Positions 1,840 through 8,724 of a stretch of DNA of 44,051 nucleotides are shown here, one piece after another. Each line of letters opens with the position of its first letter. Position 1 is the first letter of the stretch. The DNA comes from a virus, in IMG/VR virus record IMGVR_UViG_3300029705_000244. One strand, given 5' to 3'. Made by a program: the position numbers and the translations under genes. Below the pieces are notes generated by a model. It ran no database searches and was not told the origin of the DNA. It was given only the letters and a program-made list of their open reading frames with translations.

Positions 1840-1976
1840 GTTATTTCAAAAATCAATGCTTATACCCTGACTACCGTGCCACTTGGCAAAAAAACTTAAA
1901 ATTACAAGACTGTATTAGTAGACCGTCACAAGCGGGTTGAAAGTTCGGTCTTAGTGCATACAAAGAAGGGAACAAC

Positions 1977-3185
1977 GTGAAACGTTATGGCAACATATAT
2001 GACAAAATCTGTTCAATGGAAAACCTTGAACTTGCGTACAAAAATGCAAAGAAAGGAAAAGGGTGGTACAGAGAAGTAAGAGAAATTGAAGCAAATCCAC
2101 AGTATTACTTGGAACTGCTGCAATCCATGTTGAAAAATCACACCTATCAAACATCAGAGTATTCCACATTTATGAAGAAAGACGGTAGGAAAGAAAGGGA
2201 AATATACAAACTTCCATTCTTCCCGGACAGAATCGCACAGTGGGCGGTCTTGCAGATAATTGAACCGCAGTTGTTGGCATACTTCACTGATGACACCTAT
2301 TCCGCAATACCAAACAAAGGTATTCATGCAGCTTTCAGAAAGTTGCGAAAAGCAGTTGATGAACACCCGGAAGAAATGACCTACTGTTTGAAAATCGACT
2401 GCAAGAAATTCTACCCTTCTATTGACCATGACATACTAAAGCAGAAGTTCAGGAAGAAATACAAAGACCCTGAACTATTGTTTTTGATTGATGAAATTAT
2501 TGACAGTATCAACACTTGCCCGGCAACGGAAGAAAACATTGACTTCTATGCGGGACAGGGAAAAGAAATCAAGATTGTGACCGGGGATAACGGTCAGGAA
2601 TTTATTGACGGTATCGGCATACCGATAGGGAATTATTTTTCACAATATGCCGGGAATTTTTATCTGACGGAATTTGACCACTGGATGAAAGAGGTCAAGC
2701 ACGTTAAGCACTATTACAGGTACATGGATGATATTTGTATTTTCGCATCATCCAAAGAAGAACTGCACCAGTTACTTCAAGAAATTGAAGAATATTTGAA
2801 CACTAAGTTGAACTTACGTCTGAAAGGTAACTATCAAATCTTTCCTTCATTCATCAGAGGTGTTGACTTTGTTGGGTATAGGATTTTCTTAGATTATACA
2901 CTGCTTAGAAAATCCACCTGTCAGCAGTTCAAACAGAAGATGACCGCAATCAGGAAGAAAATTGAAAGCGGTCAGGAAATGAACTATTCAGAATGGTGTT
3001 CAATCAATTCATATAAGGGTTGGTTGAAACATTGTGACAGTTACCGATTGACTGAAAAATATATTGTGCCTATTCAGCCTTATGCTGATGAATATTATAA
3101 AAACCATATCAAGGCAAAAAAGAAAAAGAAAGGTGGTAAGAACCATGCAGCAGTACGGAAAAGTGAGAAGTACGCAGCAGCCTGA
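1977..3185 (+). CDS. DGR-type reverse transcriptase
   Basis: GTG start after gaaggg. The N-terminus YGNIYDKICSMENLELAYKNAKKGK is typical. RT motifs include IPIGNYFSQYAGNFYL (the DGR-type IGxxxSQ signature) and YRYMDDICIF (YxDD box). It is adjacent to the TR. Confidence 0.95.
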   Translation: MKRYGNIYDKICSMENLELAYKNAKKGKGWYREVREIEANPQYYLELLQSMLKNHTYQTSEYSTFMKKDGRKEREIYKLPFFPDRIAQWAVLQIIEPQLLAYFTDDTYSAIPNKGIHAAFRKLRKAVDEHPEEMTYCLKIDCKKFYPSIDHDILKQKFRKKYKDPELLFLIDEIIDSINTCPATEENIDFYAGQGKEIKIVTGDNGQEFIDGIGIPIGNYFSQYAGNFYLTEFDHWMKEVKHVKHYYRYMDDICIFASSKEELHQLLQEIEEYLNTKLNLRLKGNYQIFPSFIRGVDFVGYRIFLDYTLLRKSTCQQFKQKMTAIRKKIESGQEMNYSEWCSINSYKGWLKHCDSYRLTEKYIVPIQPYADEYYKNHIKAKKKKKGGKNHAAVRKSEKYAAA

Positions 3186-5707: not shown

Positions 5708-5974
5708 AAGTTCATTTTTGTTCAATGTGCATGAGAACTGAACTTCTTACTGGTTGCTTACAAATTGCCTGAAAAGGCTTTATTTTAGGGGGTCTGTACT
5801 TATGCAAGAGATAATGCAGAACCCCTTGAAACAAGGGAAAATGCAGAAAAGTCAAGGTGTTCATCTTTGTTCATCTTGCACAATCCTTGTAACGCTTCTT
5901 ACAAGTTGCTTACAGGTTGCTTACAAAATAAAGGCAAAAATCAACCCCGGTGCATTACGCACTGGGGTCTTTTT
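5708..5974. other. Candidate attP region (non-coding, repeat-rich, between endolysin and integrase)
   Basis: No convincing ORF. Short direct repeats: gttgcttaca at 5753, 5905 and 5916; gttcatctt x2 at 5859-5877; aatgcagaa x2 at 5813/5839. Hairpin agaagttca/tgaacttct at 5707-5749. This is the classical attP position next to int. Confidence 0.45.
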
Positions 5975-5977
5975 TTA
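5944..5977. terminator. Bidirectional rho-independent terminator between the lysis operon and int
   Basis: accccggtgc-atta-gcactggggt, followed by ttttttt on the + strand and preceded by an A-rich run (gatttttg when read on the - strand). Confidence 0.7.
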
Positions 5978-7036
5978 TATCTTATCAATGGCTTCTATCA
6001 GTTGTTGAATCTCAAAATGAGTGTAGACGATTTCTGTTACACCTTGCCCCTTGTGTCCCACAATCTTCTTGATAATCTTATCATCCACCCCGGCAGCAGT
6101 CAGCAGTGTAACAGTGGTGTGGCGGGTGTCATGTGGTCGGTGGTCAGGCATCCCCATTTGGTCAACCATAGGTTTCCAGTAGGAATCATAATAATTGCGG
6201 TATTCAAAGTGTTTTGCATCAGGTGTTGACAGAAGGTATTCACAATCGTTCTTGGTCATCCAGTATTCAAAGTATGGTATCAGTTTTTGTGCAATCGGTA
6301 CTTTTCTAATACCCGCTTCCGTTTTGGATGCAATCACATCAAACCACCGTTCTTCAAGGTTCACGTTCTCTTTTTTCAGGTCAAGCAGTTCACTGATTCG
6401 TACCCCGGTATAAATAAGCATCAGGACAACGGTGAAGTATTCATTGGTATCTTTCCACTTCCAAACCTTTGTGATTTCATCAGTGCTGAACGGTTTCCTG
6501 TCATATTTGTTTGGATTGCGGTCTTTGTACTGGTTTATATCAACGTATTGTGCATAGTCCTTTGCACAAATGTCATTCTGCATTGCGAACTTATAAAGCA
6601 TGGTAAACAGAACTTTGAGTTTCCGCAGTGTTGGGTAATTCTTGCCGGAATCATCAACCACACCTTGCAGATGACTTTTTCTAATATCATTGAACCGCAT
6701 GGACTTGATTGGTTCACAAAGAAGGTATGAAGCATTATACCCCTGAATATTGGACTTGGAAACCTTTGGGTAATGTTCCGCAGACCATTTTTCAAAGACT
6801 TCCGCAAAGGTGATTTTATTGGCATCCATATCATACGGATTTTCATTGAAGTGTGCCAAAGCAACCAGTGCTTCACTTTGGGTTTCATAGTAACCCAAGT
6901 ATTTGTATTTCCAGTGAGTTCTTCCGTCCTTTCCTTCTTTTCTTGACACGGTGATTCTGACCGCCCAAGGTTTTCTTCTGTTTCCGGGCAGTTTGTAAAC
7001 TGACCCATAACCGTTTGGTAATTTCATTGTATTCAT
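5975..7036 (-). CDS. int: Tyrosine integrase (site-specific recombinase, phage integrase family)
   Basis: Catalytic motifs TGVRISELLDL, HDTRHTTVT (HxxR) and GH...IVYTH (Tyr). The N-terminal arm-binding-like domain has PNGYGSVYKLPGNRRKPW. An alternative start at 7027 (MKLPNG) has better SD spacing. Confidence 0.93.
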   Translation of the reverse strand: MNTMKLPNGYGSVYKLPGNRRKPWAVRITVSRKEGKDGRTHWKYKYLGYYETQSEALVALAHFNENPYDMDANKITFAEVFEKWSAEHYPKVSKSNIQGYNASYLLCEPIKSMRFNDIRKSHLQGVVDDSGKNYPTLRKLKVLFTMLYKFAMQNDICAKDYAQYVDINQYKDRNPNKYDRKPFSTDEITKVWKWKDTNEYFTVVLMLIYTGVRISELLDLKKENVNLEERWFDVIASKTEAGIRKVPIAQKLIPYFEYWMTKNDCEYLLSTPDAKHFEYRNYYDSYWKPMVDQMGMPDHRPHDTRHTTVTLLTAAGVDDKIIKKIVGHKGQGVTEIVYTHFEIQQLIEAIDKI

Positions 7037-7086
7037 CCTTTCTTGATTGAAATTTCAAGGGTTGGATGATATAATATTGTTTGCAT
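7033..7086 (-). CDS. Possible 17-codon upstream ORF (MQTILYHPTLEISIKKG) overlapping the int start (ATGA)
   Basis: ATG at 7086-7084 and TGA at 7035-7033, overlapping the int ATG 7036-7034. Its initiation region is homologous to that of ORF 8331. There is no other support. Confidence 0.25.
   Translation of the reverse strand: MQTILYHPTLEISIKKG
7047..7075 (+). promoter_or_regulatory. Near-consensus sigma-A type promoter with extended -10
   Basis: TTGAAA (7047-7052), 17-nt spacer, TGaTATAAT (7067-7075). Confidence 0.6.
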
Positions 7087-7163
7087 AGTCCTATATCACC
7101 CTATTCCTTGATGTAGGTTTGTAACTGACCCTGACCGCTGCAACGGTTGGGGTCAATTTTTTT
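7082..7163 (+). ncRNA. Candidate small antisense RNA (about 80 nt) running from promoter 7047-7075 to an intrinsic terminator
   Basis: No ORF on the + strand. An 11-bp stem 7127-7137/7144-7154 (two pairs are G.U only in the + strand RNA), loop CUGCAA, then AAUUUUUUU (7155-7163). The 5' half contains CCCUAUUCCUUGAU (anti-SD-like). It is antisense to the int leader. Confidence 0.45.
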
Positions 7164-7165
7164 GG

Positions 7166-7492
7166 TTATTTACAACGTTTTCTAAGATATAAAATCACAT
7201 CATCCAACCTATCAATGAAATCTTGCACAGTTCCGTCAATTTCATCATACTTATATAGTGATTTCAAAATCTGCATATAGTGTTTTCTTCCCTGTAATTT
7301 CACTTTACCCAGTGGATAGGTTTTATAATAGGGTTCAAGTGTACCGTTTGAAAATCTATGCAGTGTAATGTGACTGTTTTCTGATTCATCCAGTCTTTCA
7401 TACAATTCATTAAAAAACAATTCTTCATCAGGATTCACATTGTATAACTTGGTTGGTGGATTCACATTGTATACTATCCTATATTTCAACAC
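7166..7492 (-). CDS. Hypothetical protein (108 aa) in the lysogeny module between repressor and integrase (moron position)
   Basis: GTG start with agaaagga 8 nt upstream. Internal duplicated YNVNP motif. No family recognised. Confidence 0.6.
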   Translation of the reverse strand: MLKYRIVYNVNPPTKLYNVNPDEELFFNELYERLDESENSHITLHRFSNGTLEPYYKTYPLGKVKLQGRKHYMQILKSLYKYDEIDGTVQDFIDRLDDVILYLRKRCK

Positions 7493-7512
7493 AACACCGT
7501 CCTTTCTTTATT

Positions 7513-7686
7513 GGTTACGGTTACGGTTCAAGTTCCTATTCTCTATATATTTATTTTTTTTTCTTTTCTAAGATATAAACATAAATATCAAATATAAAGA
7601 AAGTCTATATAAACCGTAACCAACCGTAACTTCATAGAAAATTGTTGAGTTTGCAACCGTAACTGCAAACCGTAACCAACAGTAAC
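7513..7686. repeat. Regulatory module 1: AT-rich promoter-like core (7529-7611) flanked by opposed arrays of GGTTACGG / CCGTAACC
   Basis: GTTACGG x2 (7514-7526). CCGTAAC x4 plus one variant (7614, 7624, 7657, 7670, 7680). Homologous to 23283-23542 in inverted genome orientation. Confidence 0.8.
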
Positions 7687-7702
7687 TAAGTGAAATCAAC
7701 AA

Positions 7703-8149
7703 CTATGATATTGCCCTTGCATTGGATGATTCTTTTTTCACAGAATATTTGTCATCTTCAAGTAAAGTGTTTATTCGTTCCATTACTTTCACTTGGTCAA
7801 TGTCATCCAGTTTTGTAAAAAGTTCAATCAGTGGTTCAGCCTTTGAACCATACACTTCTTCAAGAAGGTTGTGCAGCAACATTTTCTTCTGCAATTCTTC
7901 CGTGTTTTGGGTTAAATCACATACGGTCACACCAAGTGCCTTTGCAATGGCTTTCAGAGTAGATGCCGGAACATCATTGACACCCTTTTCTATTTTGGAA
8001 ATGGTTGACCGACTATTACTACTGTCAAAACCACATAATTTTGCAAGTTCTGCTTGGGATAACCCTTTTTCAGTTCTGTACTTCTTAATGTTCTGACCTA
8101 ATCTTTGTAAAAAATCATCTTTTCCTTTATTTTCACTCATTTGGTACAC
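7703..8149 (-). CDS. CI-like repressor (XRE-family HTH)
   Basis: HTH KGLSQAELAKLCGFDSSNSRSTISKIEKG. Divergent from the early operon. The most likely start is the ATG at 8140 (aaaggtagg, 8 nt, ATG) rather than the GTG at 8149. Confidence 0.88.
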   Translation of the reverse strand: MYQMSENKGKDDFLQRLGQNIKKYRTEKGLSQAELAKLCGFDSSNSRSTISKIEKGVNDVPASTLKAIAKALGVTVCDLTQNTEELQKKMLLHNLLEEVYGSKAEPLIELFTKLDDIDQVKVMERINTLLEDDKYSVKKESSNARAIS

Positions 8150-8165
8150 CTACCTTTCAACCCAA

Positions 8166-8194
8166 ATTATACAGTAAAATGGACTAAAAATCAA
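8166..8194 (-). promoter_or_regulatory. Leftward promoter for the repressor gene (PRM-like)
   Basis: On the minus strand: TTGATT (8194-8189), 17 nt, TATAAT (8171-8166). Confidence 0.65.
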
Positions 8195-8222
8195 CTTTTA
8201 TAAATTTTTTTATAAATTTTTG

Positions 8223-8251
8223 TTGACATTCAATCCACAATGATGTATAGT
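8223..8251 (+). promoter_or_regulatory. Rightward early promoter (PR-like)
   Basis: TTGACA (8223-8228), 17 nt, TATAGT (8246-8251), preceded by duplicated A/T UP-like repeats ttataaattttt x2. Confidence 0.7.
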
Positions 8252-8257
8252 GTGAAA

Positions 8258-8276
8258 TGTGGACGGACAATCCACA
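8258..8276. promoter_or_regulatory. Operator-like palindrome TGTGGA-N7-TCCACA (copy 1 of 4)
   Basis: tgtgga cggacaa tccaca lies just downstream of the PR -10. An extra TCCACA half-site sits in the PR spacer (8234-8239). Confidence 0.6.
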
Positions 8277-8284
8277 ATAAAAAC

Positions 8285-8329
8285 AACCGTTGCAGCGGTT
8301 CAAAAATCAAGGAATAGGACGGTATAGGG
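8285..8329 (+). promoter_or_regulatory. PR-leader element: hairpin AACCG-UUGCAG-CGGUU plus AUCAAGGAAUAGG.., an inverted copy of 7089-7148
   Basis: 8285-8300 is the reverse complement of 7133-7148 (15/16 plus one wobble). 8306-8329 is the reverse complement of 7089-7112 (13 contiguous bp, a 2-nt gap, then 9 bp including 2 G.U). Confidence 0.6.
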
Positions 8330-8330
8330 A

Positions 8331-8498
8331 ATGAGAACTTACAGAGCAGAAATCGAAGATGATAATTTTGAAATCATTCTTGCTGATGATGACAATGATG
8401 CGTTAAAGCAATACTGGAAATTGGAAGAACAAGGTCACGAACTGTTTAATCTGCATGAGATTGATGAAGATTATGATGTAATCAGAACACTTTGTTAG
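8331..8498 (+). CDS. Small acidic early protein (55 aa), first gene of the rightward operon
   Basis: MRTYRAEIEDDNFEIILADDDNDALKQYWKLEEQGHELFNLHEIDEDYDVIRTLC. Below the ORF-track cut-off. Confidence 0.5.
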   Translation: MRTYRAEIEDDNFEIILADDDNDALKQYWKLEEQGHELFNLHEIDEDYDVIRTLC

Positions 8499-8514
8499 AA
8501 AGGGGTCATGAAGT

Positions 8515-8724
8515 ATGAGAGAAAATAAGCAGAAGATATGTGATTTGTTACTGGTGACATTACAGGCAACCAGTAATGCAGCGGATGTTGTTGCAATCGT
8601 GTATGACGATAGTACGGAAAAAGTTCAGGTGACTTTTGCAAGCGGTGGTCATAGGAATATCAATGTTGCAATGGATTCCGGTACTGCAATGATTCGTGAC
8701 ATTATGAATAATCTTGGGTGTTAG
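8515..8724 (+). CDS. Hypothetical early protein (69 aa)
   Basis: ORF with RBS aaagggg upstream. No motif recognised. Confidence 0.55.
   Translation: MRENKQKICDLLLVTLQATSNAADVVAIVYDDSTEKVQVTFASGGHRNINVAMDSGTAMIRDIMNNLGC

Follow-up and report, generated by a model that had tools for sequence, protein, structure and literature searches.

A small RNA gene with predicted targets in the early-operon and integrase leaders of gut Lachnospiraceae phages

A family of temperate phages of gut Lachnospiraceae carries a lysogeny module that comprises int, the gene of a small RNA, an optional accessory gene and the repressor gene. The comparative evidence presented here points to a new antisense RNA family that would work like P1 c4 or P22 sar and would have two targets, the leader of the rightward early operon in trans and the leader of int in cis. 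We consider it likely that this two-target RNA, when in excess, restrains the early operon at its head as well as the synthesis of Int, and it probably helps to keep the phage dormant.

Results

The RNA gene in the window

The stretch of DNA that was analysed (the window), a metagenomic contig of 44,051 bp, has the appearance of a complete temperate phage genome. Its only leftward genes are int, ORF108 and the repressor gene. The first-pass annotation had proposed a promoter upstream of int, a terminator with an 11-bp stem that contains two G.U pairs favouring the plus-strand RNA, and no plus-strand open reading frame in between, and all of these were found again (Table 1). On the two strands of the 44-kb window only three sites match at 11 of the 12 promoter positions; the RNA promoter is one of them and the only one with a perfect −10 box plus the TG extension. 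The terminator stem extends to 12 bp if the outer U-A pair is counted, and is followed by AA and a run of seven T residues (7157-7163) that would give the U-run of the transcript. The G.U pairs are 7133.7148 and 7132.7149; they are conserved in relatives and become A.C mismatches on the opposite transcript. The plus-strand RNA of 7082-7163 indeed folds better (−32.1 kcal/mol, z −5.3) than its minus-strand version (−25.5 kcal/mol, z −3.3). Among the open reading frames of the window none lies on the plus strand between promoter and terminator.

By themselves the promoter and terminator matches are not significant, since in comparison with shuffled sequences the region is enriched neither in promoter-like matches (18 versus 14.3 expected) nor in terminator-like matches (5 versus 3.3 expected). 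It is conservation and covariation among relatives that carry the case. The motif CAATCCACAAT, a probable operator, is confined to positions 8231 and 8268, away from the RNA promoter, so nothing points to control of the RNA by the repressor; the promoter appears to be strong and is apparently unregulated. Among the properties by which base-pairing small RNAs are recognized as a class, a conserved promoter, a conserved terminator hairpin with a U-run, the lack of an open reading frame and a complementarity to the target that is kept by compensatory change were found here.

Table 1. Positions of the RNA gene, of the elements in the int leader and of the predicted target in the early-operon leader (coordinates of the window).
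Feature	Position	Strand	Details
RNA promoter	7047-7075	+	−35 TTGAAA 7047-7052, 17-nt spacer, extended −10 TGaTATAAT 7067-7075
Predicted non-coding RNA, ~80 nt	7083-7163	+	ends are predictions; covariance-model match 83.9 bits
Stem-loop 1	7090-7117	+	arms 7090-7098 / 7109-7117; loop CCCUAUUCCU 7099-7108 with anti-Shine-Dalgarno; from fold and covariation
Stem-loop 2 (intrinsic terminator)	7126-7163	+	stem 7126-7137 / 7144-7155; loop CUGCAA 7138-7143
Element X	7091-7111	−	complement of the RNA 5′ half; Shine-Dalgarno-like decoy; can pair with Y
Element Y	7055-7074	−	anti-Shine-Dalgarno UAUAUCAUCCAACCCUUGA; under the RNA promoter spacer and −10
Element Z	7025-7046	−	int Shine-Dalgarno UCAAGAAAGGAUGA 7046-7033 and int start codons
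Early rightward promoter	8223-8251	+	TTGACA-17-TATAGT; would transcribe the trans target
Direct repeats flanking the early promoter	8221-8241 / 8258-8278		probable operators
Leader hairpin	8284-8300	+	CAACCG-UUGCAG-CGGUU, loop 8290-8295; complementary to RNA 7133-7149
Shine-Dalgarno region and AUG of the first early ORF	8306-8333	+	intermolecular covariation; cognate better than non-cognate
ORF55	8331-8498		first early ORF
Predicted duplex, start codon	7084-7086 with 8331-8333		RNA CAU with leader AUG
Predicted duplex, 5′ arm	7089-7097 with 8321-8329		
Predicted duplex, Shine-Dalgarno region	7100-7112 with 8306-8318		
Predicted duplex, leader hairpin	7133-7149 with 8284-8300		

Distribution and genome context

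At least 112 loci in phages or prophages have the RNA unit, and the RNA sequences among them fall into 42 variants. Eight viral contigs that were reached via the integrase and repressor proteins carry it at 72-88% identity. In these contigs the extended −10 ATGATATAAT and GCATAG are invariant and the −35 TTGA is nearly so, GCAUAG being the predicted 5′ end of the RNA; over nine homologs obtained by integrase, repressor or hairpin searches ATGATATAAT and TTGA are likewise invariant or almost invariant. The hairpin and the T-run are conserved in the homologs found through the integrase and repressor proteins. A search pattern built on the invariants of these protein-derived homologs returned 93 viral contigs and about 14 true matches in Lachnospiraceae genomes. 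Since this pattern included the −10 box, GCAUAG and CUGCAA, part of the invariance that they show in the large set is imposed by the search. Two loci are independent of the pattern, L025, which was found by the covariance model only, and L023; both have a divergent extended −10 promoter and a terminator in the same place, with the loop CUGCAA in the terminator of L025 and a different RNA sequence in L023. Genera with the unit include Roseburia, Hominiventricola, Blautia, Sporofaciens, Acetatifactor and Merdimonas, and cultured carriers include Roseburia zhanii BX1005, Hominiventricola filiformis CLA-AA-H276, Sporofaciens sp. SGI.106 and Clostridium sp. OF03-18AA and OF09-36. The unit is absent from three integrase relatives (L024, L026 and L028), and a distant blastn search with positions 5900-8600 as the query gave no relative with the unit among cultured phages. 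The conservation of promoter and stem on which the first-pass annotation had staked its reading thus extends to more than 100 loci, in which promoter, start, two stem-loops and terminator are kept.

The RNA gene lies 46-73 nt from the divergent int start in 88 of 88 loci. This fixed position holds while the integrases are 32-94% and the repressors 28-57% identical and the first early genes are unrelated, the latter belonging to at least seven families across the loci. The modules that surround the RNA form a mosaic: ORF108 is present in only 11 loci, and in L143 the first early gene is the HTH regulator that in the window lies 1 kb deeper in the operon.

Fold of the RNA

A two-stem covariance model was built and 41 sequences were realigned to count covariation. 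Standard pairs occupy 87.1% of the cells of this alignment versus 74.5% in shuffles, 18 of the 20 pairs are changed on both sides, and none of 500 shuffles reached the observed value of any of five measures. When as a control the 3′ partners were slid along the alignment, pairing dropped to 33-50%. All 12 pairs of stem-loop 2 co-vary, with 95% of the cells paired. In stem-loop 1, 6 of the 8 pairs show both-sided changes, and its arms occur as CCUAUAUCA/UGAUGUAGG, CCUAUA/UAUAG and CCAAAUC/GAUUUGG. The 5′ half of the RNA, earlier described as unstructured, thus forms a co-varying stem. The anti-Shine-Dalgarno sequence that the first-pass annotation had noticed there is real and is displayed in the loop of stem-loop 1, which is of the type AUCAUUCCUU; the compensatory stem changes that it had suggested looking for in relatives are those just given. 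RNAalifold on MAFFT alignments missed both stem-loop 1 and the hairpin of the int leader because the arm lengths differ, and was replaced by covariance-model alignment and per-sequence partition-function folding.

The trans target in the early-operon leader

A repeat search showed that 7090-7112 is an inverted copy of 8306-8328 and 7134-7149 one of 8284-8299. Both copies lie on the plus strand, so two plus-strand RNAs would pair. The second of these RNAs is the leader at the 5′ end of the rightward early operon, 1.2 kb from the RNA gene, in which the target ends at the ATG at 8331; the repressor gene lies between RNA and target on the opposite strand. The predicted duplex of the RNA with 8284-8333 comprises 45 bp at −63.8 kcal/mol; the window scan gave −63.7 kcal/mol for this partner against a background of −24.3 ± 6.2 kcal/mol, and the net gain after unfolding of both partners is −28.9 kcal/mol. 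In the whole window, on both strands, the early leader is the best partner of the RNA besides its own complement. The terminator loop CUGCAA is complementary to the leader hairpin loop UUGCAG, and the first loop and the 5′ end of the RNA cover the Shine-Dalgarno sequence and AUG of the first early ORF. The predicted pairing lies exactly over these two signals, with the invariant 5′ CAU of the RNA included, in the window and in ten further variants. The first-pass annotation had proposed an antisense RNA; comparative evidence upholds a discrete small antisense RNA on the plus strand, and what that reading had missed is the target in trans, the sole one for which the sequence itself gives a demonstration.

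Of 43 distinct loci, 41 have a promoter of the form TTGACA-17-TAnnnT ahead of the target. In short leaders, such as that of the window, it precedes the target by 32-38 nt, and in long leaders a RAGATH-8 RNA is situated between promoter and target. The target follows directly after this RNA, within the leader of the early lytic operon, in many phages. The commonest relatives have what we call type B leaders, with a AAGGAAUAGGA block that has no adjacent start codon and with an element of about 205 nt, bounded by inverted repeats, between the target and the first ATG. Since the type B target is away from the start codon, simple occlusion of the ribosome binding site cannot be the universal mechanism; the duplex might instead be cleaved, or the RNA titrated. 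For the units of L001, L022 and L023 no target was detected in the DNA searched.

Where the downstream DNA is long enough, in about 28 variants, the RNA has its best partner on the same strand 1.2-2.1 kb downstream in the same form, with z values of −4.3 to −7.4. The pairing is retained as the sequences change. In the window CCUUGAU faces AUCAAGG, in L027 CCGUGAU faces AUCACGG, and RNAs of the CCAAAUC type face ..GGAAUGAAA..GGACUAUG. A gapless count of duplexes anchored on UUCC/GGAA gave at least 15 contiguous base pairs in 19 of 19 distinct duplexes, with two to four Watson-Crick pair types at each of seven flanking positions. When targets were permuted among loci, none of 2000 permutations reached the observed pairing. 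With 12 non-redundant types, the values were −61.2 kcal/mol for cognate and −50.6 kcal/mol for non-cognate pairs (0 of 5000 permutations). In L025 a different RNA 5′ sequence matches its own site 881 nt downstream over about 70 nt (−81.7 kcal/mol, z −7.1).

The hairpin stems of RNA and leader vary independently of each other while complementarity is kept between the loops, CUGCAA and UUGCAG. The arms GACCG/CGGUU face AACUG/CAGUU in 20 of 43 loci, each hairpin keeping its own five pairs. We read this combination of independent stems and complementary loops as the signature of RNA hairpins that meet by their loops. The asymmetry between G.U and A.C pairs was also considered as evidence for the strand of the intermolecular duplex and was set aside as not decisive: the preference for plus over minus strand is modest, and the plus strand is better in most of the divergent types with a small effect.

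The int leader

The RNA gene also lies opposite the leader of int. No leftward terminator was found between the upstream gene and int, so leftward transcripts would carry the complement of the RNA. The overlap stops 46 nt short of the int ATG. Two start candidates are present (ATG 7036-7034 and ATG 7027-7025), of which the second appears the likelier since relatives align from residue 4.

Three elements of this leader, X, Y and Z, can form alternative pairings. In the full int leader of the window X pairs with Y and the Shine-Dalgarno sequence of int is open (−40.1 kcal/mol, z −5.3); without X, Y folds onto Z. The calculated probability that the int Shine-Dalgarno sequence is unpaired is 0.48 with X free versus 0.10 with X blocked, and the change has the same direction in 31 of 31 variants (p 9e-10). 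This sequence is open at 0.11 with the native upstream segment versus 0.42 with a shuffled one, and at 0.45 with native X versus 0.11 with shuffled X. Y and Z co-vary, as in UCAUCC/GGAUGA, UCAUUCC/GGAAUGA and UCAGUCC/GGACUGA. Cognate combinations are favoured for both X-Y (−16.7 versus −12.5 kcal/mol for non-cognate ones) and Y-Z (−11.3 versus −9.2 kcal/mol), with 0 of 5000 permutations in each case. X resembles both the early-leader site and the int Shine-Dalgarno sequence. These computations support a model in which RNA that occupies X would let Y shut the int Shine-Dalgarno sequence. Such a switch would require int transcripts that start upstream of X; with an int promoter solely downstream of Y there would be no switch.

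The first-pass annotation had taken the int leader as the cis target of the RNA. The support that this proposal gains is indirect and comes from the co-evolving X/Y/Z switch, not from covariation of the overlap itself. Two other connections with int were tried and rejected. Pairing of the RNA with the int initiation region outside the overlap gave a median z of −0.39 over 38 variants. A minus-strand leader peptide coupled to int would correspond to a 17-codon ORF that ends at the int ATG in the window, and this ORF is reduced to 3 codons in the commonest variants.

Discussion

Proposed mode of action and alternatives

From the sequence elements, their conservation, the two sets of covariation and the thermodynamics of the switch, all of which are observed, we infer synthesis of the RNA, intracellular pairing, and both the direction of the control and its physiological role. 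The RNA would be made from its own promoter, end at its own intrinsic terminator and fold into two stem-loops. In trans, the terminator loop CUGCAA would make the first contact with the leader hairpin loop UUGCAG, after which pairing would spread via the first loop, with its anti-Shine-Dalgarno sequence, and the 5′ end over the Shine-Dalgarno sequence and AUG. Translation would thereby be blocked at the head of the early operon, and the message would probably be exposed to cleavage. In cis, the RNA would bind its complement X in leftward transcripts entering int; Y would be freed and would close on the Shine-Dalgarno sequence in Z, so that no Int would be made. With an excess of the RNA in a lysogen, or in a cell with a related prophage, early lytic expression and Int would both be held down post-transcriptionally, and the RNA would form a second lock beside the protein repressor.

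The same pairings could also serve a reversed logic, which we consider possible but doubtful, with Int as the regulated output and the early leader as a sponge. In a lysogen the RNA would keep the int Shine-Dalgarno sequence closed; on inactivation of the repressor a flood of early leaders would soak up the RNA, new int leaders would then fold X onto Y, and Int would be made when excision is needed. This arrangement would account for the strict linkage to int across integrase families that are only about 33% identical, for a leader site that is kept although the first early gene varies, and for a type B site away from the ribosome binding site. The resemblance of X to both the leader site and the int Shine-Dalgarno sequence fits as well, as does the behaviour of the switch in 31 of 31 variants. 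A sponge site, however, would not need the exact cover of Shine-Dalgarno sequence and AUG that is seen in the window and ten variants. A related idea, to which we give similarly little weight, is that the RNA acts as a hub that ties Int synthesis to the lytic promoter, bursts of early leader, which carries a mimic of the cis site, opening the int switch upon induction.

We regard it as unlikely that the RNA acts purely in cis as an antisense RNA to the int leader, with the similarity to the early leader being a functionless relic of a duplication. The perfect overlap with any leftward transcript entering int, the fixed position by int and the fact that the covariance model also matches, as a partial copy, the target's reverse complement all agree with this explanation, but a relic would decay and instead the two sites change together in many lineages, including L025 with its some 70 nt of different sequence. 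Moreover, cognate pairs outperform non-cognate ones and the site is always inside the leader of the early transcript. Less probable still is that the repeats act as DNA, either as the ends of an invertible segment with the repressor gene and early promoter or as looping operators of one protein. It is true that the core ACCG-CTGCAA-CGGT is nearly palindromic around an asymmetric centre of 6 bp and occurs twice, inverted and 1.15 kb apart, beside int, which encodes a tyrosine recombinase. Against inversion, nevertheless, stands the orientation of the repressor gene relative to the RNA gene, identical in 84 of 84 loci, and against a shared protein site the independent variation of the core arms, which differ in most loci (e.g. 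GACCG/CGGTT versus AACTG/CAGTT). The same core also stands alongside unrelated integrases and repressors, the complementarity extends over 45-70 nt with a variable gap and covers Shine-Dalgarno sequence and AUG, one copy lies within a promoter-to-terminator unit with strand-specific G.U pairs, and the likely operators are different repeats (CAATCCACAAT). Hardly credible, finally, is a chance promoter and hairpin that lack a function, or a type I toxin-antitoxin system with a small ORF on the opposite strand. The absence of enrichment of promoter- and terminator-like matches in the region would be expected of the former, and the minus strand has a Shine-Dalgarno-like sequence and an AUG opposite the RNA 5′ end as the latter would need; yet conservation and covariation in more than 100 loci speak against a lack of function, and the minus-strand ORF is not a conserved small ORF, having 3 codons in the commonest variants and ranging from 3 to more than 30.

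Significance

The preferred reading, an RNA that restrains the early operon and Int together, suggests that dormancy and cross-immunity in these phages rest on RNA as well as on the repressor. Lysogeny control in phages of human-gut Clostridia is to our knowledge almost unstudied, and we know of no phage antisense immunity RNAs beyond those of a few enterobacterial phages. The present RNA would be one with a wide distribution among phages of Clostridia that abound in the human gut. The antisense immunity RNAs described for phages in a 2025 review come from few enterobacterial phages (PMC12197685). No description of the present element was found in the literature searched; what appears to be new is an RNA family in Gram-positive gut phages, its combined cis and trans targets, and the fold switch on int. 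A dormancy that depends on RNA would bear on predictions of prophage induction in the gut and on the engineering of these bacteria. The proposal offers features that can be tested: two complementary 6-nt loops, an anti-Shine-Dalgarno loop, a three-element switch on the int Shine-Dalgarno sequence and cultured strains that carry the unit. If the RNA were indeed a hub between the lytic promoter and Int, it would also confer cross-immunity throughout this family of gut Lachnospiraceae phages, since members with unrelated repressors and integrases share the pairing core. The RAGATH-8 RNA, for which we know of no established function, would in that case gain its first functional context.

Comparison with known antisense RNAs

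At the Rfam gathering threshold the window has no match at this locus, so that the covariance-model search proposed by the first-pass annotation led to no family. The best Rfam family is sar (RF00262), with a sub-threshold 25.4 bits (E 0.022; 7098-7158, plus strand) against a gathering cut-off of 43, and in L107 the sar score is 21.2 bits. The C4 model gave no match in 6900-8450 at E values up to 10. Judged by these models the RNA belongs to none of the sar, c4 and OOP families. The comparison with these three RNAs that had been drawn earlier thus holds for the kind of RNA and not for family membership.

The c4 RNA of P1 and P7 (immI) is a small structured phage RNA with loops that are complementary to a distant ribosome binding site region on the same strand (PMC12197685). 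Its target heads an operon that would break lysogeny, two separate complementary segments are involved, and it acts beside a protein repressor (PMC12197685). The present RNA is similar in that two loop segments are predicted to pair with the ribosome binding site region of a target in the same phage, a likeness in function only. Its gene lies 1.2 kb from the target, beyond the repressor gene, and unlike c4 it also overlaps the int leader and belongs to phages with Gram-positive Clostridia as hosts. c4 is cut from the same transcript as its target, icd-ant, whereas the present RNA has a promoter and terminator of its own.

In the latter respect it is closer to P22 sar, an antisense RNA of about 70-80 nt with its own promoter and terminator that covers the ribosome binding site of an anti-lysogeny gene. 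sar is encoded opposite its target, the ant ribosome binding site, and acts in cis; the co-varying target of the present RNA is in trans, on the same strand at 1.2 kb, and the gene leader that the RNA overlaps is that of int. In lambda, the short terminated antisense RNA OOP of the immunity region overlaps the 3′ end of cII and acts via RNase III, and lambda sib, located downstream of int, provides a post-transcriptional control of int that depends on the transcript carrying it. The control elements described here differ from both in being upstream of int and in acting, by prediction, on the Shine-Dalgarno sequence through alternative pairing. The CI RNA of P4 and the CA RNA of N15 are immunity RNAs that pair with repeats in their own early leader; they arise by processing of the leader under their control and act by terminating transcription. 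Neither such an origin nor such a relation to a terminator was observed in the present phages, membership having been compared through Rfam.

A first contact between loops and an antisense RNA that selects the fold of a leader are known from the plasmid systems ColE1 RNAI/RNAII, R1 CopA/CopT and pCF10 Anti-Q. The genes of these plasmid RNAs lie opposite their targets, and the processes controlled are replication or conjugation, whereas the predicted kissing partner of the phage RNA is a separate locus and the fold switch lies in an integrase leader.

Structured RNAs in the early operons of related loci

The early lytic operon has a full RAGATH-8 RNA (RF02687, up to 319 bits) in its 5' leader in the related loci L107, L130, L018, L032, L066, L116, L139 and L083. 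In these loci the RNA follows the early promoter and precedes the target of the antisense small RNA, which places RAGATH-8 in a defined transcript context, the leader of an early lytic operon. No RAGATH-8 RNA was found in the window. Several relatives have type II hammerhead ribozymes (39-52 bits) within their early operons, a few hundred nucleotides 3' of the first early gene; the window contains none.

In L107 an element of ~205 nt separates the RNA target from the first start codon. Its ends form a 27-bp inverted repeat (CAGTTCTTTCAAAAAATTGTCTATTGT / ACAATAGACAACTTTTTGAAGGAACTG), and it was also found in L018, L032, L033, L116 and the commonest variant group. No Rfam family matches the element, which may represent a structured RNA domain or else a small mobile insertion. 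In the commonest variant (30 contigs) the first long ORF appears, when its translation is read by eye, to combine an N-terminal part that is PP-loop-like with a tail-like C-terminal part. This fusion points to a prophage remnant that has undergone a large internal deletion but still keeps the small RNA and its target.

Coordinates of features in the window and in related loci
Feature	Sequence	Position	Strand
RT-17 RNA (Rfam RF03020, 63.6 bits)	window	1872-1963	
Reverse transcriptase gene (RVT_1)	window	1977-3185	
Small RNA promoter, -10	window	7070-7075	+
Promoter-like site (9/12)	window	7099..7071	leftward
ORF108	window	7166-7492	
16-nt direct repeat	window	7178-7193, 7564-7579	
Gap from ORF108 to repressor gene	window	7508-7687	
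Direct repeats at early promoter	window	8221-8241, 8258-8278	
RAGATH-8 RNA	L107	2327-2602	
~205-nt element	L107	2689-2893	
First long ORF	L107	2910-4601	
Promoter-to-terminator unit	L023	3819-3981	minus strand of locus
Type II hammerhead ribozyme (RF02276)	L039	3062-3128	
Type II hammerhead ribozyme (RF02276)	L066	2347-2413	
Type II hammerhead ribozyme (RF02276)	L074	2331-2398	
Type II hammerhead ribozyme (RF02276)	L083	3420-3486	
Type II hammerhead ribozyme (RF02276)	L139	1115-1184	

Promoters, repeats and accessory genes

Direct repeats of the form TGTNGAC...CAATCCACAAT overlap both the early promoter and the start predicted for it. Exact copies of their 11-mer occur at these two places only, and the repeats are probably repressor operators.

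A weak leftward promoter-like site shares its -10 region with that of the small RNA promoter (overlap at 7070-7076). Predicted int transcripts from this site would begin inside element Y, the anti-SD sequence of the int leader, and would thus escape the hairpin that closes the SD. In L023, an integrase relative with 72% identity, a promoter-to-terminator unit occupies the position equivalent to the small RNA gene. Both of its hairpins carry UUGCAG, the target-type loop, and no pairing partner was found in the 5.9 kb of L023 DNA searched.

Only 11 of the 112 related loci contain ORF108, the accessory gene between the small RNA gene and the repressor gene; other loci have a different gene at that place. 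An exact 16-nt direct repeat, TTTTCTAAGATATAAA, lies on both sides of ORF108, and the pair resembles a scar left when an accessory gene was inserted. At least five repeat copies, in both orientations and with the units AACCGTAAC(C) and TTGGTTACGGTT, occupy the gap that separates ORF108 from the repressor gene. These may be protein-binding sites, and similar repeats are present in L050.

Elsewhere in the window, an RT-17 RNA lies immediately 5' of a reverse transcriptase gene, with tail-like genes adjoining; together the RNA and the gene (1872-3185) probably constitute a diversity-generating retroelement.
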